Source of the DNA: Escherichia phage EC.W1-9
Length of the DNA stretch: 40,616 bases
Sequence record: PP445227.1
Reading direction: 5' to 3' (one strand)
The notes under the pieces were generated by a model. The model was given only the letters and a program-made list of their open reading frames with translations, had not been told where the DNA came from and did no database searches. A program made the translations under genes and the position numbers. Below are positions 9,106-40,044 of this stretch, one piece after another (position 1 is the stretch's first letter; the number at the start of each line of letters is the position of its first letter).

Positions 9106-9120
9106 TTACCTTCAAGGTAA
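9106..9120. promoter_or_regulatory. Palindromic site TTACC-N5-GGTAA
   Basis: TTACCttcaaGGTAA upstream of the minus-strand moron gene. Confidence 0.5.
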
Positions 9121-9323
9121 CGTTCAGTCACCAGGCAAAAAAATGCCCGGCGAACCGGGCGAACTGGAAGCAATGAGTTATGCCTTCCGTGGCTGTACTG
9201 GTTTACAGCATGAAGTCATCGCAATGGCGTCCTGCTGTAAAAAGGGCGGTGATAGTCCTTCAAGGGAAACAGTCACCGCCAATCCCCTGGAACTTCTGGC
9301 ATCACGGTCCTTAGGCGTGATTC

Positions 9324-9400
9324 TGGCGTGGCATGCAGGATTCGAACCTGCGACCAACCGCTTAGAAGGCGGTTGCTCTGTCCAACTGAGCTAATGCCAC
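9324..9400 (-). tRNA. tRNA-Arg (anticodon UCU)
   Basis: Reverse complement folds as a cloverleaf: acceptor GTGGCAT/ATGCCAC, D-arm GCTC…GAGC, anticodon stem ACCGC/GCGGT with loop CTTCTAA, T-arm GCAGG-TTCGAAT-CCTGC, discriminator G, encoded CCA; 77 nt. Confidence 0.85.
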
Positions 9401-26007: not shown

Positions 26008-26556
26008 TTACTTTTCTTCAGGTTTGTTGTCTTCAGATTTCTTCTTGATGCTTGGTTTTTGTCTAAGAACGAAAATACCAGCCACTGCAACAACTGTACC
26101 GATCACTGTGCCAGCTAGAACTTCATGACCTGTTAAACCTAATAATGTTGCACAAGCTACTGTAAAAATAGTTGCACTCAGGCCAAACCACTGCCCACGT
26201 TTATCTCTATTAATAGCCCCGTCAAGTGCCTTTTCCTCCATTTTCTGGCGGTGAGCAAACTCCTTCTCCGTCAGCTGGAAGATGCGTTCGGGGGCATCAG
26301 GTAAAATATCCTGATACCCGCGAAGCAGATAGGGGGGAGGAAGCGGACCCTGAAACGCATGGTGAGCGACAACTATCTCCTGAATTTCAGGGCGATCAAG
26401 AACTCTTGTGAAGGCATCTGGGTGTTGAATGATCTCGTTACTTAGCCCTTCCTCAACTTCCTCGAACTCAGTTTCTTCGTTATCACTTGGTTGCCCAATA
26501 GATTTTTGCATATTTGTCGAAGGACATTCCTTTAGCTTCTGGTTTTCCTCTTGCAT
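26008..26556 (-). CDS. Membrane protein (acidic N-terminal domain, two C-terminal TM helices)
   Basis: 182-aa ORF; C-terminal WFGLSATIFTVACATLLGL…TVIGTVVAVAGIFVL hydrophobic segments; sequence style reminiscent of DUF2335 proteins (recalled, uncertain). Confidence 0.5.
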   Translation of the reverse strand: MQEENQKLKECPSTNMQKSIGQPSDNEETEFEEVEEGLSNEIIQHPDAFTRVLDRPEIQEIVVAHHAFQGPLPPPYLLRGYQDILPDAPERIFQLTEKEFAHRQKMEEKALDGAINRDKRGQWFGLSATIFTVACATLLGLTGHEVLAGTVIGTVVAVAGIFVLRQKPSIKKKSEDNKPEEK

Positions 26557-26809
26557 TTGAGTTTTTCCCTGTCACTATTGCCCATTTTCCGCCAGCAGGC
26601 GCTGCAATTTTTTTTCCGTTCTTTACTATATATTCAGCATAAACACGATTTTCTGACCGTCTGAGATCGTCTCCGACCATATTCATGTCTCTTGATATAA
26701 CTTTGACGACAGAGTCTCGGTTTAAAGCCTTGGCATAGTTGGAGCCAGGAACGATACCCAAAGGGGTGCCAGACTCTATAGCCAGCTCCTTGACATATCT
26801 TCTGCTCAT
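26483..26809 (-). CDS. Hypothetical protein, first gene of a minus-strand accessory operon
   Basis: ATG at 26809 with GAGGT 4 nt upstream; palindromic site in its promoter region. Confidence 0.5.
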   Translation of the reverse strand: MSRRYVKELAIESGTPLGIVPGSNYAKALNRDSVVKVISRDMNMVGDDLRRSENRVYAEYIVKNGKKIAAPAGGKWAIVTGKNSNARGKPEAKGMSFDKYAKIYWATK

Positions 26810-26830
26810 ATGAACCTCAACCAATCGACT

Positions 26831-26845
26831 TTACCAATCGGGTAA
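26831..26845. promoter_or_regulatory. Palindromic site TTACC-N5-GGTAA
   Basis: TTACCaatcgGGTAAT about 22 bp upstream of the 26809 start. Confidence 0.5.
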
Positions 26846-26930: not shown

Positions 26931-27623
26931 TCAGAAGAACCCTGCTTTGTCGTTGATGTACTCCGCGTGCGTCTGGATATCACGCAGGCATTTGCTCACA
27001 CCGACGATGTAGCAGAACATGGTGGTCAACTCCGCCGCCGCGCCCGATACGTCGTGCCCGTCTTCCTGTAACTGGTTTAGCAGATTCATCAGCAGTGAGT
27101 TCTCCGTCAGGCCGAGAACACCAGACGGCGAATGAATCAGGCTGCGGTAGCCGGGCTTCAGTGGGGCGCTGTAGGTTTTGTTCTCTACCTTCATTGCCTG
27201 CATCACTGCTGATGCTGTGGCGTTGGCTACCTGGTCGGCAACCATCTTTATGCGTTCTTCCTGCGGGAGCGAGTTTTTAATGTAACTTCCGGTGCGGCGG
27301 ATCTGAGGAAGAACCTCACCTGTAACCCATTCAAGAAATCTGAATGCTCTCGTTCCCTCAGTCATTGCCTCTTTGCAACGCAGAATAAGGATGTAGAGAC
27401 CTGATTCTGAAACGATGGATAGTTCTTGTATTCCACCAGGGGTCTGTATTGAATACAGCCCCTTTTTGTTCCAGCCTTTTTTATCAAGTTTTCTCGCTTG
27501 TGTAACATCAATATTCAAAGCATTGCACACATCTTTGGTGACAAACCAAGGTTCTCCGTCAATCATGAACATACGGATCTGGCAGGATGACTCAAAGGAA
27601 AAGATGGAAGGTTTGGTATTCAT
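26931..27623 (-). CDS. Antirepressor (Bro-N / KilA-N-type N-terminal domain)
   Basis: N-terminus FSFESSCQIRMFMIDGEPWFVTKDVCNALNI…GLYSIQTPGGIQELSIVSESGLYILI matches the Bro-N antirepressor fold pattern; ATG at 27623 after AAAGGTGA. Confidence 0.7.
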   Translation of the reverse strand: MNTKPSIFSFESSCQIRMFMIDGEPWFVTKDVCNALNIDVTQARKLDKKGWNKKGLYSIQTPGGIQELSIVSESGLYILILRCKEAMTEGTRAFRFLEWVTGEVLPQIRRTGSYIKNSLPQEERIKMVADQVANATASAVMQAMKVENKTYSAPLKPGYRSLIHSPSGVLGLTENSLLMNLLNQLQEDGHDVSGAAAELTTMFCYIVGVSKCLRDIQTHAEYINDKAGFF

Positions 27624-27889
27624 AGCGATCACCTTTGTAGTTAGGTTAATCACCACCGCTGAGACCAATCAGATGGTGGTGAACTGTGCAGAGTTGGTCT
27701 TACCGGCTACAAAGGAACCCGGCGCACCTTTCGGTGCCCCCACACAGCCCACCATAGAATAGGTGCGCTTTACACATAAAAAAACCGCTTATGCGGCATA
27801 TGTGCCTCTGTAGTAATCCGGGAGACCAATCCCGGCACTGGATTTTGCCAGTGCCCGATTACTATGGCACAAGAGGAGTGCAATGTAAA

Positions 27890-27904
27890 TTTACCGAAAA
27901 GGTA
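27890..27904. promoter_or_regulatory. Palindromic site TTACC-N5-GGTAA
   Basis: TTACCgaaaaGGTAAT; TATATGGTTTGAT follows about 35 bp downstream. Confidence 0.5.
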
Positions 27905-28066
27905 ATAATAAATGCATAACTCACGTTATTTCAACCCTATATGGTTTGATTTATCCCATTTCAGAAAATACCTGCCTATTTTTTTGCCAGTATGCGTATA
28001 CTTTCGATAGAATGTTTACCCTAGAGGTAGTTGGGGGTGCCCGTGAACACGAAGAGAGCTACAGTA

Positions 28067-28486
28067 ATGCAGCATTTGAGGAAATCAGAAAAAAATAAAG
28101 ACCATGAAATATTGAGTAAGGCCATTGTTCGGGCTTCCAATAATACTGTTATACCTCATGCTGAAGAGTCTGGACAGAAATTTCTTATTCGGTATTTCAC
28201 TGAAAATAGTGCAGTTGAGGAGATTTTAAAACATCAGGGAGGGGAATTTAAATGTGGAAAACTGGCAGATTATGTTCGTCGTGAAACGTCTGAACAAGAA
28301 GTATATTATGCTGATATTAATCATAAGTCAGGTGTGAAAATTGTAATAGGCTATTACACAACTCCCAAAAATGTTATGCATGAGGTCCCAAAGATGTCCG
28401 TCGAGAAATCTCATGCAATCTCGCGCAGGATGTTTGCACGCACTGCCGAAGATATGGCTCAGGAGCTCTACGACGATGCTGAATAA
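28067..28486 (+). CDS. Hypothetical protein, first gene of a two-gene accessory cassette
   Basis: ATG at 28067 after GAAGAGAG; 139 aa; overlaps the next gene by 11 nt. Confidence 0.5.
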   Translation: MQHLRKSEKNKDHEILSKAIVRASNNTVIPHAEESGQKFLIRYFTENSAVEEILKHQGGEFKCGKLADYVRRETSEQEVYYADINHKSGVKIVIGYYTTPKNVMHEVPKMSVEKSHAISRRMFARTAEDMAQELYDDAE

Positions 28487-28982
28487 ATTCCAGGGGTTGG
28501 TTCACCCTGGAATTTTTGGGAAGGACCCTGAGCTAATACCTATCAAAAACGCGTTCATAGATCACTGGCGCTACGGTCATCATAAGGATTTCGGAAAGGA
28601 CACTCTGTTTCGGGATCCACCGAAAGAAATGCTGGAATATCACATACGCCACGTTCACGTAAACATCGGAAACTATACTGACAAGTTTGGTGAGAGCGGT
28701 ACGGAACAATGCTGGAAAAACTGGGCGTCTGGGAAGAAAGACAAGACCACTAACAAGCATAAAAAGATCCCAACCAGTGACGTGTATGTGATTTATCTGG
28801 TCACATCTGAACGCCATGCCTTCCTTCTGGATTATTGGGATGAACCAGCACATAAGACAGTAGAAATTGACGAGCAGAAGCAAAAATTAGTTGTCGAGTG
28901 TGACAGAATTTTGCGGCTGAAAAAGTTAGAATCCATGCCGCGCGATGCTAGTTTGTGGGACCCAGAATTTTACGACTGTTAA
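28476..28982 (+). CDS. Hypothetical protein, possible toxin-like component (weak YafO-like motifs)
   Basis: 168 aa; motifs HVHVN and AFLLDYWDEPAHK resemble YafO-family toxin blocks as recalled from memory; followed by a terminator. Confidence 0.4.
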   Translation: MLNKFQGLVHPGIFGKDPELIPIKNAFIDHWRYGHHKDFGKDTLFRDPPKEMLEYHIRHVHVNIGNYTDKFGESGTEQCWKNWASGKKDKTTNKHKKIPTSDVYVIYLVTSERHAFLLDYWDEPAHKTVEIDEQKQKLVVECDRILRLKKLESMPRDASLWDPEFYDC

Positions 28983-28983
28983 T

Positions 28984-29008
28984 GGCCGCTTTCGCGGCCT
29001 TTTCTTTA
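28984..29008 (+). terminator. Rho-independent terminator (GGCCGC-tttc-GCGGCC + TTTTCTTTA)
   Basis: Same 16-nt hairpin as at 25731. Confidence 0.6.
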
Positions 29009-29263
29009 TGTGGTTTGTTTTCGTAATTGTTCGGCACAATAGTCGAGATGTGTTTGCAGATCCTGCATAGACATCTGTGAGCTGGTGACGTAGTTAATCA
29101 GTGCAGTCAGTTCGGCAAGTGGGCCATCGACATTAAATCCATCCTTATCGAGATCCCGGAGTAATTTCATCAAGTGCGATCCCTCCACCAGTGACCTGAC
29201 GCCTCCCGGCGTGTGAATCCTTTCGGTAAATCCGTCTTCCAGTGGATAGTGATACTGCTGCAT
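29006..29263 (-). CDS. Small protein paralogous to the antirepressor C-terminal domain
   Basis: ERIHTPGGVRSLVEGSHLMKLLRDLDKDGFNVDGPLAELTALINYV aligns by eye with the C-terminus of the 26931-27623 protein; ATG at 29263 after GGAGAAG. Confidence 0.5.
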   Translation of the reverse strand: MQQYHYPLEDGFTERIHTPGGVRSLVEGSHLMKLLRDLDKDGFNVDGPLAELTALINYVTSSQMSMQDLQTHLDYCAEQLRKQTT

Positions 29264-29339
29264 CTTATCTTCTCCATGCAATAACTGTATGTTTATACAG
29301 TAACAAATAATTTGTTTGCTATCCAGCACGTTTTGCAAA

Positions 29340-29354
29340 TTACCCGAAAGGTAA
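29340..29354. promoter_or_regulatory. Palindromic site ATTACC-N5-GGTAAT (perfect)
   Basis: In the divergent intergenic region between the 29263 gene and the tailspike. Confidence 0.55.
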
Positions 29355-39459: not shown

Positions 39460-40044
39460 TTATTGTTTGTTTTTTTCGTTCTGGTTGATGACAAATTCAA
39501 TGTAACTTTCGATCTTTGCTTTCTCGGTTTCGGGTAACAATGCGTAGCGCGAGCGATCATAGTTGATGGTCGCAGGGTCGTGCGGGTGAATCAGTAATTC
39601 ATAGCCGTGACGCCCGAATGCGGATGCAACATTCTCCAGGGTGGAAATGGAAACGCTGACCTCATTGTTTAACAGGCGGCTGATTGTCACCTGGGCTACG
39701 CCGGATGCGCGGTGAAGTTTTCCCTGTGTTGAAAGGTCGCGGCTTTCGCTCATCCAGCGTTCCAGGTTGTGAGCCGCCAGCTGGCCAATGTCGCTTGGGC
39801 CGACAGGCTGAAAACCTTCCTGAGAAAGCGAGCGATCGATATCAAGCCAGTTACGGGGTTTATTGGCGGCAGCTTCAATTTTTCGCGCAACCTGATCGCC
39901 GATAACCTTCTTACCAAGAGCCCAGCGGTTTACCAGATTTGCCTGAGTTCCAAGTTTTTCAGCCATCCGCGTCTGAACACCATTGAATTCACGGTCGATC
40001 AAGTCGTTGAGATTTTGCCTGCGGACGTCCTGGATACTTTTCAT
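39460..40044 (-). CDS. Repressor-like DNA-binding protein with two HTH-like segments
   Basis: 194 aa; segments LGTQANLVNRWALGKKVIGDQVARKIE and SGVAQVTISRLLNNEVSVSISTLENVASAFG look like XRE-type HTH units; divergent from a Cro-like gene across a triple-site region; no S24 peptidase motif noticed. Confidence 0.5.
   Translation of the reverse strand: MKSIQDVRRQNLNDLIDREFNGVQTRMAEKLGTQANLVNRWALGKKVIGDQVARKIEAAANKPRNWLDIDRSLSQEGFQPVGPSDIGQLAAHNLERWMSESRDLSTQGKLHRASGVAQVTISRLLNNEVSVSISTLENVASAFGRHGYELLIHPHDPATINYDRSRYALLPETEKAKIESYIEFVINQNEKNKQ

Follow-up and report, generated by a model that had tools for sequence, protein, structure and literature searches.

The mechanism of the c4 RNA of phages P1 and P7 was reportedly described by Citron & Schuster in 1990 and by Heinrich et al. 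in 1995. Kim & Ryu are said to have found in 2013 that LexA controls the ant gene of phage SPC32H, and the PDB entries 5D50 and 5D4Z are the SPC32H Rep/Ant structures of Kim et al. from 2016. According to PMC9638917, which cites the SPC32H work, the Rep tetramer is broken by the Ant tetramer. Work on Gifsy-1 (Hershko-Shalev et al. 2016; PMC4825925) has described IsrK read-through, an activated anrP and, further downstream, an RNA that is processed; the authors explained the activation by the binding of IsrK to the mRNA near the upstream ORF, orf45. The APSE-7 record LR794151.1 carries isrK, C4 and BRO-N as annotated features, a' and b' included (PMC7313666).

Here we describe a locus of Escherichia phage EC.W1-9 (PP445227.1), the whole 40,616-nt record of which is referred to as the window. 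By type, the window is an E. coli prophage of the phiV10/epsilon15-like group (Uetakevirus). The structured leader of its Bro-N antirepressor gene consists of IsrK and C4, two already catalogued phage small RNAs. The layout of the locus is that of P1/P7 immI and of the Gifsy-1 isrK region, and APSE phages have already been annotated with the same layout. The locus is a known kind of control module and brings no new principle.

IsrK and C4 in the leader of the Bro-N/Ant gene

The original prediction described a structured 270-bp leader having four hairpins and a repeated decamer on the antirepressor's own strand. All of these were found by direct reading of the sequence:

27651-27657 and 27675-27681: hairpin CACCACC ... 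GGTGGTG
27721-27739: hairpin GGCGCACC-tttc-GGTGCCC
27818-27835: hairpin CCGGGA-gaccaa-TCCCGG
27834-27855: hairpin GGCACTGG-attttg-CCAGTGCC
27661-27670 and 27822-27831: duplicated decamer GAGACCAATC, corresponding to the b2 and b1 copies described below

RNA structure prediction, proposed at the time as a check, gave -99.4 kcal/mol for the leader (27854..27624, minus strand) against -73.1 ± 4.6 kcal/mol for 200 shuffles (z = -5.7), so the leader is far more stable than its shuffled versions. The structure therefore stands, and the length does not: counted from the predicted start at 27854, the leader is 231 nt long.

On the minus strand, the Rfam covariance models isrK and C4 both exceeded their gathering scores (E values of about 1e-14). 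The features of the module are as follows.

27861..27889, minus strand: IsrK/C4/ant promoter, with -35 TTTACA (27889..27884), a 17-nt spacer containing TG, and -10 CATAGT (27866..27861)
27778..27854, minus strand: IsrK RNA (Rfam RF01394, 74.7 bits against a gathering score of 50)
27854..27835, minus strand: IsrK hairpin 1
27834..27819, minus strand: IsrK hairpin 2, its loop carrying b1
27829..27823, minus strand: b1, UUGGUCU, in the loop of IsrK hairpin 2
27813..27805, minus strand: a1, CUACAGAGG, inside IsrK, 9 nt downstream of b1
27797..27778, minus strand: intrinsic terminator (27797..27784 plus the T-run in the terminator scan)
27672..27759, minus strand: C4 antisense RNA (Rfam RF01695, 78.6 bits against a gathering score of 45)
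27715..27707, minus strand: a', CCUUUGUAG, in the loop of C4 hairpin 2
27700..27694, minus strand: b', AGACCAA, in a single-stranded joint of C4
27651..27681, minus strand: alternative hairpin CACCACC...GGUGGUG, with b2 UUGGUCU (27668..27662) in its loop
27640..27632, minus strand: a2 target, CUACAAAGG, overlapping the ant Shine-Dalgarno AAGGUGA (27635..27629); element span 27629..27640
26931..27623, minus strand: second antirepressor, 230 aa, ATG at 27623..27621, Bro-N plus an SPC32H-Ant-like C-terminal domain

The promoter is nearly invariant among 90 aligned leader variants, and the transcription start predicted by the promoter scan, G27854, is also the nucleotide at which the isrK model begins. 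IsrK is equivalent to the c4-a1b1 motif followed by a terminator; the c4-a1b1 model itself (RF03163) reached 39.9 bits, below its gathering score of 46.7. The stem of the terminator varies in sequence between leader types with its pairing retained. In the window, an AUG after a1 opens a frame of 9 codons that extends across the terminator. Ribosome-mediated attenuation was considered on this account and rejected: no other leader type has the AUG, and one close variant carries ACG in its place.

The C4 match covers the full-length model (E = 6.7e-14), and the RNA folds into a 17-bp outer stem and two inner hairpins. Compensatory changes occur at five pairs of the outer stem, where 98.8% of the cells are paired (90 sequences), and the 3' end of C4, ...CACCACCA, is invariant in all the leader variants aligned. 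One and the same segment serves as the 5' arm of the alternative b2 hairpin and as the 3' strand of the outer stem of C4, so that only one of the two structures can form at a time. Since the arms of the b2 hairpin never vary, covariation is uninformative on its stem.

The isrK and C4 pair was also detected by the Rfam models in phiV10 and ZX5, and is absent from the SPC32H locus. The leader is matched by 236 phage records, which include Stx phages, where it lies upstream of 'ant'. Among 5426 complete E. coli genomes, 556 (about 1 in 10) match the 2.66-kb stretch at least in part, and 40 of these 556 have the full arrangement at a coverage of at least 80%. RefSeq has no RNA gene annotated at the IsrK/C4 position. 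In the Rfam search we found no match to isrJ in the window. A plus-strand RT-7 match was dismissed as weak (18.5 bits against 116.8).

Pairing elements and their covariation

The a' element of C4 forms nine Watson-Crick pairs with a2 (-12.0 kcal/mol) and is also complementary to a1 inside IsrK; likewise, b' is complementary to b2 (7 bp) and to b1. We examined these elements in 146 related loci and observed that the three copies of each covary, with five a types and three b types in at least eight combinations. The a1/a'/a2 and b1/b'/b2 types reassort among the relatives. Duplex energies were computed element by element, because everything unfolds when complete C4 is run in RNAduplex against the complete leader or IsrK, and nothing is learned from it; in each row of the type matrix, the cognate duplex came out as the most stable. 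The a2 of each of the five a types either overlaps the Shine-Dalgarno or lies directly against it. The window and phiV10, the latter of types aII and bII, differ in both their a and their b types, and b types are common to Uetakevirus leaders and Stx phages.

These data bear on the earlier suggestion of an antisense or small-RNA control. Small-RNA control is supported by the two curated families and their covarying pairing elements, and an antisense RNA of the sar type, made from the opposite strand, is not. The analogy to sar control of P22 ant is not supported, since the regulator here lies upstream of its target on the same strand, is co-transcribed with it and uses short a'/b' elements as in P1 c4. 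We judge it very improbable that a sar-like RNA from the opposite strand controls ant while the small paralogue at 29006-29263 competes with or modulates the large antirepressor. The plus strand of the leader does fold well (z = -5.5) and has one 9-of-12 promoter-like match at 27538-27566, and both proteins carry a common domain. However, the complement of any hairpin set is expected to fold well, and about five promoter-like matches of such quality are expected by chance in the region. Furthermore, the isrK and C4 models match the minus strand only, the T-run of the terminator is on the minus strand and no plus-strand terminator was found in the terminator scan, no Arc/Mnt-like genes or families are nearby, and the small protein, whose orthologue is an antirepressor of known structure, has its own promoter, predicted to be controlled by LexA (see below).

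CDS annotations overlap C4 in ZX5 ('ash family protein') and in VT2-Sakai (orf34), from which the leader could be read as coding for a small protein instead of RNAs. This, too, we consider very improbable. The only ORF over C4 in the window is closed after 24 codons, and relatives break the frame by indels, for example by a 1-nt indel at the a' loop between close relatives, whereas the stem substitutions are compensatory at the RNA level. The ZX5 CDS (1779-1892) overlaps the ZX5 Rfam match to C4 (1821-1906); at least one phage record carries a spurious 'ash family protein' over C4. An icd-like conserved ORF between C4 and ant was not found, nor does the leader hold an orf45-type upstream ORF coupled to the antirepressor, the mini-ORF over the terminator being not conserved. 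A coding ORF in the leader, whether 'Ash' or an analogue of orf45 or icd, was thus rejected for lack of conservation.

Two antirepressors, the repressor and its predicted operators

The Bro-N/Ant protein contains a Bro-N domain at residues 16-106 (Pfam, 1.9e-13) and a C-terminal Ant domain at residues 149-225 (27179..26949) that matches PDB 5D50_E (E = 9e-14). It falls into phrog_130, 'anti-repressor Ant' (4e-51). The start of its gene, with the ATG at 27623..27621, is corrected relative to the original prediction. Among the relatives, the N-terminal domains on the Bro-N side are mosaic and the C-terminal Ant domain is nearly identical. ORF4 of ZX5 is annotated at the position of this gene in a region 95% identical in DNA, and its overexpression lowered lysogeny about 1000-fold (PMC9782041). 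Two cargo genes and two genes downstream of ant had no match in Pfam, NCBIfam or PADLOC; PHROGs placed all four, three in families of unknown function and one as 'membrane protein'.

The remaining components of the switch are listed here.

29006..29263, minus strand: small antirepressor Ant, 85 aa, orthologue of SPC32H Ant
29283..29302, no strand: LexA (SOS) box TACTGTATAAACATACAGTT, CTGT-N8-ACAG, between the putative -10 and the Shine-Dalgarno of the small ant
29340..29354, no strand: predicted repressor operator TTACCCGAAAGGTAA, upstream of the small ant's putative -35 TTGCAA (29338..29333) at a distance of 1 nt
27891..27905, no strand: palindrome TTACC-N5-GGTAA, a predicted repressor operator upstream of the IsrK/ant promoter that stops 1 nt short of the -35
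39460..40044, minus strand: prophage repressor Rep, 194 aa, with no domains other than HTH; presumably both antirepressors act on it

The product of the small gene is 42% identical to residues 149-222 of the Bro-N/Ant protein (E = 8e-20), in agreement with the earlier claim that it is a paralogue of the C-terminal domain of the antirepressor. Thirty positions are invariant across the small Ants of the window, SPC32H and phiV10 and the C-terminal domain of the fusion. Its proposed role as a competitor or modulator is not supported: it is the orthologue of the crystallised SPC32H antirepressor (88% identity to KC911856, 'ant: anti-repressor protein'; E = 1.3e-47 to PDB 5D50_E), with an operator/-35/LexA-box promoter laid out as in SPC32H. 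RefSeq labels this SOS antirepressor 'hypothetical'. If anything, the accessory copy is the Bro-N fusion, as Salmonella relatives such as SPC32H carry the small gene only. The fusion protein may bind this Rep as well, through a domain that is only 42% identical to the small Ant.

The LexA box matches the consensus TACTGTATATATATACAGTA at 17 of 20 positions (manual count), and LexA would be expected to bind at 29283-29302. CTGT-N8-ACAG is present upstream of the small ant in 118 of 119 related loci, 114 of which have close variants of the box in the window, and the same promoter position is occupied in SPC32H. The -10 of this promoter is weak (ACAAAT). The spacing of operator and -35 is identical at the small ant promoter, at the IsrK promoter and in SPC32H. 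The window contains 17 copies of the operator motif (0.61 expected), two of them between the rep and cro-like genes; at 27891-27905 the half-sites are kept in 88 of 90 aligned leader variants and the spacer is variable. This motif is probably what Rep binds. The LexA box, the operators and the intrinsic terminator inside the leader had all been missed in the original prediction.

Rep matches PDB 5D50_A, 'Repressor', over its full length (residues 1-190; E = 4e-42) and is 100% identical to the Rep of phiV10 and of ZX5. No S24/LexA-like peptidase domain was found in it with Pfam, which returned HTH families only. The expectation of a repressor without autocleavage was thus upheld in a homologue of SPC32H Rep, and the antirepressor-driven induction that had been anticipated is supported.

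We consider it quite likely that the switch is composed of a non-self-cleaving Rep and two antirepressors with a common Ant domain, one of them controlled by LexA and Rep and the other by Rep and C4/IsrK. The small ant would serve as the SOS input, as its promoter combines a Rep operator with a near-consensus LexA box; because of this combination, cleavage of LexA after DNA damage should release Ant, inactivating Rep. The module at 26931-27905 would be of the P1-immI type, its promoter having a predicted Rep operator abutting the -35. Transcription is expected to make IsrK first, with the target copies b1 and a1, and most transcripts should stop at the intrinsic terminator, those reading through continuing into C4 and then into the Bro-N/Ant gene. 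By analogy with P1, C4 is probably active after excision from its precursor by RNase P, at which the invariant 3' end hints. Pairing with a2 through a' over 9 bp and with b2 through b' over 7 bp, it would cover the ant Shine-Dalgarno and block translation directly. When the whole leader is folded at minimum energy, a1/b1 are paired in cis with a'/b' and the Shine-Dalgarno stays almost unpaired, so that unprocessed read-through RNA might be translatable and repression would depend on processed C4 acting in trans. Since IsrK holds the same two target sequences as the ant leader, it could act as a decoy. The IsrK:C4 ratio would then set the threshold, which we offer as a reading of the Gifsy-1 result that extra IsrK turns the antirepressor on.

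The same elements could also follow the logic described for Gifsy-1, in which the read-through mRNA would be translationally inactive, IsrK would be a trans-activator opening it, and C4 would be mainly a structural part of the mRNA and not a diffusible repressor. We find this doubtful. The homologous locus was tested, and IsrK in trans activated anrP translation about 100-fold (PMC4825925); the 74.7-bit match to the isrK model and the alternative structures that the C4 outer stem and the b2 hairpin make possible are in line with it. However, an orf45-like ORF for translational coupling is lacking, the sole frame over C4 being the unconserved one, and a2 lies directly on the ant Shine-Dalgarno. 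The three-way covariation would be expected of a C4 repressor and its decoy, and activation through titration fits it equally; this logic is largely compatible with that of a C4 repressor.

The purpose of the Bro-N/Ant protein may be another one than the induction of its own prophage. It could be an anti-immunity weapon at superinfection, or against the repressors of other resident prophages, with the C4 a/b types defining who silences whom; we entertain this tentatively. Rep is the same protein in the window, phiV10 and ZX5, yet the a and b types of the window and phiV10 differ. The c1 repressors of P1 and P7 are likewise interchangeable, and their immI regions differ. The phiV10 GenBank record DQ126339.2 names the Bro-N/Ant protein 'putative anti-immunity protein', and trans-acting antirepressors are known in Salmonella (PMC3121763). 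On the other hand, the overexpressed ZX5 ORF4 acted on its own phage, and a role in anti-immunity would refine that of the module without contradicting the C4/IsrK mechanism.

An extension of this idea, which we regard as rather unlikely, is a population-level RNA heteroimmunity among E. coli Uetakevirus prophages of identical Rep. It would be based on a reassorting RNA 'barcode' of at least five a by three b types, each written three times (in IsrK, C4 and the ant leader), and C4 would silence an incoming Bro-N/Ant gene only if both parts match. If this were true, a mismatched invader would express its antirepressor, inactivate the common Rep, break immunity and induce the resident, the LexA-controlled small Ant still being the ordinary SOS route. 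The b types common with Stx phages would extend such cross-talk to Shiga-toxin prophages.

Comparison with known systems

The practical value of recognising the C4/IsrK module lies in annotation and in understanding how such prophages get induced: it would account for the inducibility of a phiV10-type prophage whose repressor cannot cleave itself, and it reveals two separate inputs. The natural a/b variants are a ready-made panel of compensatory mutants. Such a panel could address an old open point in P1, the role of the upstream a1/b1 copy (here IsrK), and could reconcile 'C4 represses' of P1 with 'IsrK activates' of Gifsy-1.

In P22 immI (ant, sar, Arc, Mnt), as proposed here, antirepressor synthesis is limited by a small RNA pairing at the ribosome-binding site. 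Unlike the window RNA, which is on the same strand and pairs through elements of 7-9 nt only, sar comes from the opposite strand and is fully complementary; Arc and Mnt are absent from the neighbouring genes of the window, and P22_AR_N is matched below threshold only (17.7 bits against 30.7). The CI RNA of P4, with its seqA and seqC (cited also in PMC4825925), resembles the window C4 in being processed from the leader of its own operon and in pairing with repeated upstream and downstream targets, but it terminates transcription of replication genes and involves neither an antirepressor nor occlusion of a ribosome-binding site.

The SPC32H Rep/Ant/LexA system is close at the protein level, the small Ant being 88% identical and Rep homologous over its full length though only 42% identical. 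In both phages the small ant adjoins the tailspike gene, and the operator/-35/LexA-box promoter is the same. In contrast to SPC32H, which lacks the IsrK-C4-Bro-N/Ant module, the window has the Ant domain twice, once fused to Bro-N. In the APSE phages of Hamiltonella, which belong to another phage genus, order and spacing are identical, with isrK, C4 with a'/b', and a BRO-N protein about 55 nt downstream.

In the Gifsy-1 region (isrK - orf45 (STnc1160) - anrP), IsrK has the two hairpins and the terminator known from the window. As is predicted for the window, read-through there leads into a C4-like element and on to the antirepressor, and one promoter gives a short and a long isoform. The window differs in having no conserved orf45-type upstream ORF and no isrJ match, and the predicted Rep operator of its promoter ties the module to the repressor of the same prophage.

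With respect to P1/P7 immI (c4 - icd - ant1/ant2; RF01695/RF03163), the window has no icd-like ORF, and since a2 is on the Shine-Dalgarno of the antirepressor gene itself, unlike in P1, no translational coupling or Rho step would be required. Its antirepressor, a Bro-N protein with an SPC32H-Ant domain, is unrelated to P1 Ant, its a1/b1 copy is part of a small RNA with a terminator of its own (IsrK), and its phage is a small, chromosomally integrated podovirus. The C4 fold is common to the two systems: a' is exposed in the loop of a hairpin, and b' occupies the single strand next to it. Both have their targets upstream (a1/b1) and downstream (a2/b2) on one transcript, the downstream copy being at a ribosome-binding site. 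In both, the cargo is an antirepressor, the promoter has an operator motif of the main repressor (a predicted one in the window), scattered genome-wide like the C1 operators of P1, and natural a/b specificity variants occur beside an identical primary repressor.

Leader RNAs of the Bro-N antirepressor gene

The antirepressor gene, ant, occupies 26931-27623 of the minus strand, with its ATG at 27623, and is preceded by a 231-nt leader (27854..27624). The four hairpins and the duplicated decamer of the original prediction were all found in this leader, at most one base off. The leader folds with an energy of -99.4 kcal/mol, compared to -73.1 ± 4.6 for shuffled sequences (z = -5.7). Its complement folds nearly as well, and therefore the folding energy alone cannot tell which strand is relevant. 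Rfam models of isrK and of C4 antisense RNA matched on the antirepressor strand, each above its gathering score. The motif 'a1, b1 targets of C4' matched the 5' part of IsrK at a relaxed threshold only (39.9 bits, below the cut-off of 46.7).

Features of the leader
27854..27778, minus (antirepressor) strand: isrK, 74.7 bits (gathering score 50)
27759..27672, minus (antirepressor) strand: C4 antisense RNA, 78.6 bits (gathering score 45)
IsrK promoter: sigma-70-like, TTTACA, 17 nt with TG, CATAGT; predicted start G27854
27797..27778, minus strand: IsrK intrinsic terminator
IsrK hairpin 1: GGCACTGG/CCAGTGCC
IsrK hairpin 2: CCGGGA/TCCCGG
C4 first inner hairpin: GGCGCACC/GGTGCCC
CACCACC/GGTGGTG: 3' strand of the C4 outer stem paired with its complement downstream
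Duplicated GAGACCAATC: the b1 and b2 target pair
b1, UUGGUCU: loop of IsrK hairpin 2
a1, CUACAGAGG: in IsrK, 9 nt downstream of b1; one G-U pair with a'
a', CCUUUGUAG: loop of the second C4 hairpin
b', AGACCAA: single strand adjoining the second C4 hairpin
b2, UUGGUCU, 27668..27662: complementary to b'
a2, CUACAAAGG, 27640..27632: complementary to a' without mismatch

The predicted start G27854 coincides with the first position of the isrK model, and a2 overlaps the ant Shine-Dalgarno (SD) sequence AAGGUGA, five bases ahead of the AUG. The same a1b1/a'b'/a2b2 arrangement has reportedly been described for the immI operon of phages P1 and P7. Just 3' of a1, the minus-strand CACAU (27799-27804) covaries with AUGUG (27771-27776) just 3' of the terminator T-run, the same columns reading GCGCAU/AUGCGU in other leader types; by implication, the terminator of IsrK is enclosed by a helix in the read-through RNA.

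Covariation of the pairing elements

Using the two proteins of the locus, we took 160 loci from IMG/VR and extracted the leader from 146 of them (89 distinct sequences). The pairing elements fell into five a types and three b types, and within each type the three copies change together. The a and b types reassort in at least eight combinations.

Pairing-element types among the 146 loci (a1/a'/a2 or b1/b'/b2)
a, window: CUACAGAGG/CCUUUGUAG/CUACAAAGG
a: CUAAAAGG/CCUUUUAG/CUAAAAGG
a: CUAAGUGG/CCACUUAG/CUAAGUGG
a: CUAGUAGG/CCUACUAG/CUAGUAG
a: GUCACAG/CCCUGUGAC/GUCACAGG
b, window: UUGGUCU/AGACCAA/UUGGUCU
b: UUGGCGU/ACGCCAA/UUGGCGU
b: UUUGCAC/GUGCAAA/UUUGCAC

In a cross-type matrix, the cognate a'/a2, a'/a1, b'/b2 and b'/b1 duplexes were the most stable in every row. 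The C4 outer stem carries compensatory changes at five pairs among the relatives, and the IsrK terminator stem differs in sequence among leader types with its pairing kept. The covariation of the elements, together with the compensatory stem changes, indicates that the RNA-RNA interactions of the leader are under selection and that the element is an RNA rather than the 'ash family protein' coding sequence annotated in ZX5. The one exception is a natural recombinant (leader variant L119, two IMG/VR contigs), in which b1 UUGGCGU mismatches b'/b2 AGACCAA/UUGGUCU, and which offers a ready-made test of the role of the upstream a1/b1 copy. Small-RNA control of the antirepressor, as originally proposed, is thus upheld by the Rfam matches and the covarying elements; the sar-type mechanism is not, since isrK and C4 both lie on the antirepressor strand.

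Coding sequences are annotated over the C4 RNA as 'ash family protein' in ZX5 (MW722083.1, positions 1779-1892 of the extracted locus) and as 'orf34' in the Stx2 phage VT2-Sakai (1563-1736). The 'ash' frame is closed after 24 codons in the window, and the a' loops of close relatives differ by an indel of 1 nt; both calls are probably misannotations. In RefSeq E. coli records no ncRNA is annotated at the locus, and the small antirepressor is called 'hypothetical protein'.

The phiV10 locus (NC_007804.2, 1607-2424) has a deletion in the -35 region of the IsrK promoter, and a frameshift truncates its Bro-N protein within the Ant domain (194 aa); its C4 and IsrK still score above gathering. The phiV10 copy of the module looks decayed. 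The C4 of VT2-Sakai (AP000363.1, about 1500-1740) has the b' type of phiV10 (UACGCCAAC) but not its a' type. In O157 strains, Stx and Uetakevirus prophages might conceivably engage in partial RNA cross-talk.

Two antirepressors and a putative Rep operator

The product of ant has a Bro-N domain at residues 16-106, and its residues 149-225 match the crystallised Ant chain 5D50_E (E = 9e-14). The small gene (29006-29263, minus strand; 85 aa) is paralogous to this C-terminal domain, as predicted (E = 8e-20, with 42% of 74 residues identical). The small Ants and the C-terminal domain of the ant product have 30 invariant positions in common. The proposed competitor role of the small gene did not hold: its product is 88% identical to 'ant: anti-repressor protein' of Salmonella phage SPC32H (KC911856.1) and matches 5D50_E at E = 1.3e-47. 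The 39460-40044 protein gave a full-length match (E = 4e-42) to the Rep chain of the 5D50 complex, and all of its domains are of the HTH kind. This SPC32H-type pair of Ant and Rep supports the earlier suggestion of antirepressor-driven induction. According to a paper that cites the SPC32H work, two Rep dimers are bound by a tetramer of Ant, which breaks up the tetramer that binds DNA (PMC9638917). Between the window and SPC32H the cognate Reps are only 42% identical; this comparison shows much stronger conservation of the antirepressor than of the repressor that it presumably targets.

Upstream of the small ant, its SD and putative -10 are separated by TACTGTATAAACATACAGTT, which by hand count shares 17 of 20 bases with the LexA-box consensus. 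Of 119 related loci, 118 retain a CTGT-N8-ACAG box. The layout of operator, -35 and LexA box is the same at the ant promoter of SPC32H, which is reportedly under LexA control. A phage-borne tRNA-Arg (anticodon TCT; 9324-9400, minus strand) lies near another CTGT-N8-ACAG match (9193-9208) and near the putative Rep-operator sites at 9106 and 9730.

The window holds 17 copies of the 15-bp palindrome TTACC-N5-GGTAA (11 of them perfect; 0.61 expected), starting at 1815, 1877, 6369, 6387, 9106, 9730, 26831, 27891, 28016, 29340, 32310, 34244, 39326, 39388, 40100, 40148 and 40485. Nearly all sites are intergenic or at gene starts; several are paired 48-62 bp apart, the rep/cro region included. Rep and the cro-like gene have two sites between them. 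The site at 27891-27905 ends 1 nt upstream of the IsrK promoter -35, and that at 29340-29354 has the equivalent position at the small ant promoter. Relatives nearly always conserve the half-sites, with a variable spacer. We infer the palindrome to be the operator of Rep, which would repress both antirepressor promoters. The dispersal of the sites over the whole prophage looks like that of P1, where C1 operators are scattered and one of them is at the immI promoter; we know of no description of such dispersal for Uetakeviruses.

The minus-strand order of small gene, structured leader and Bro-N gene is kept in phiV10 and ZX5, and the tailspike gene adjoins the small ant divergently. In the window, two plus-strand genes (28031-28982) that are not present in phiV10 or ZX5 separate the small gene from the leader. 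Sequence similarity among relatives ends exactly at the operator beside the IsrK promoter, which suggests that the insertion site may be a cargo slot.

Genes and sites flanking the module
27984-28013: promoter of the insertion, followed by an operator-like site (28016-28030; the putative Rep operator with one mismatch)
28031-28982, plus strand, first gene: 151-aa protein of unknown function, phrog_9503; overlaps the second
28031-28982, plus strand, second gene: 168 aa; RefSeq name 'type II toxin-antitoxin system YafO family toxin'
26483-26824, minus strand: downstream of ant; 113-aa protein, phrog_10654
26008-26556, minus strand: DUF2335 membrane protein, overlapping the 26483-26824 gene

Pfam, NCBIfam and PADLOC scans of both inserted proteins gave no match. 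A separate putative Rep-operator site (26831-26845) and promoter-like matches lie between ant and its downstream gene pair.

Distribution, proposed mechanism and known systems

The 2.66-kb stretch around the locus is 91-95% identical to phiV10, vB_EcoP_ZX5, TL-2011b and other Uetakevirus (epsilon15-like) phages over the half or so that aligns. Some match was present in 556 of 5426 complete E. coli genomes and the whole arrangement in 40; chromosomal prophages 100% identical to the stretch are among them. The leader matches 236 phage records, including many Stx-converting phages, where it is upstream of 'ant', SfV ('immunity region'), a Yersinia phage and APSE-7. The APSE-7 record annotates isrK, C4, a', b' and then a BRO-N gene, in the order of the window, an arrangement described in PMC7313666. 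The protein under C4 control has a nearly identical C-terminal Ant domain in relatives, but its N-terminal part is mosaic: there are several variants of Bro-N, an N domain of unrelated sequence and, in one case, an unrelated protein of 168 aa. ZX5 ORF4 is annotated at this position, and its overexpression reduced lysogeny roughly 1000-fold (PMC9782041). SPC32H is entirely without the IsrK-C4-fusion module, which is thus an accessory second antirepression circuit.

In the lysogen, Rep would hold both ant promoters low, with LexA adding a block on the small ant. On DNA damage LexA would be removed, and the small Ant made would disassemble Rep. From the second promoter, most transcripts would stop as IsrK; read-through RNA would give C4, which would occlude the fusion-gene SD through a2/b2, and IsrK, carrying the same targets, would titrate C4. 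When the full leader is folded at minimum energy, a'/b' are taken up in cis by a1/b1 and the SD is nearly free, so that repression probably needs processed C4 in trans. This fits the homologous Gifsy-1 locus, where extra IsrK strongly activated the antirepressor AnrP; experiments there also showed read-through of the IsrK terminator and a processed RNA downstream of IsrK (PMC4825925). Rep is 100% identical among the window, phiV10 and ZX5, whereas neither the a nor the b type of the window is that of phiV10; at the population level, the RNA layer may therefore amount to a second, polymorphic immunity specificity, as in P1 versus P7.

Every component of the locus belongs to a described family, and its main uses are annotation correction and a natural series of compensatory mutants. 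Compared to the type systems, which have an icd or orf45 ORF, the window module has no such ORF and is predicted to act by direct SD occlusion. It also differs in that the Ant domain is fused to Bro-N, and in that the C4-controlled fusion coexists with a small Ant under putative LexA control.
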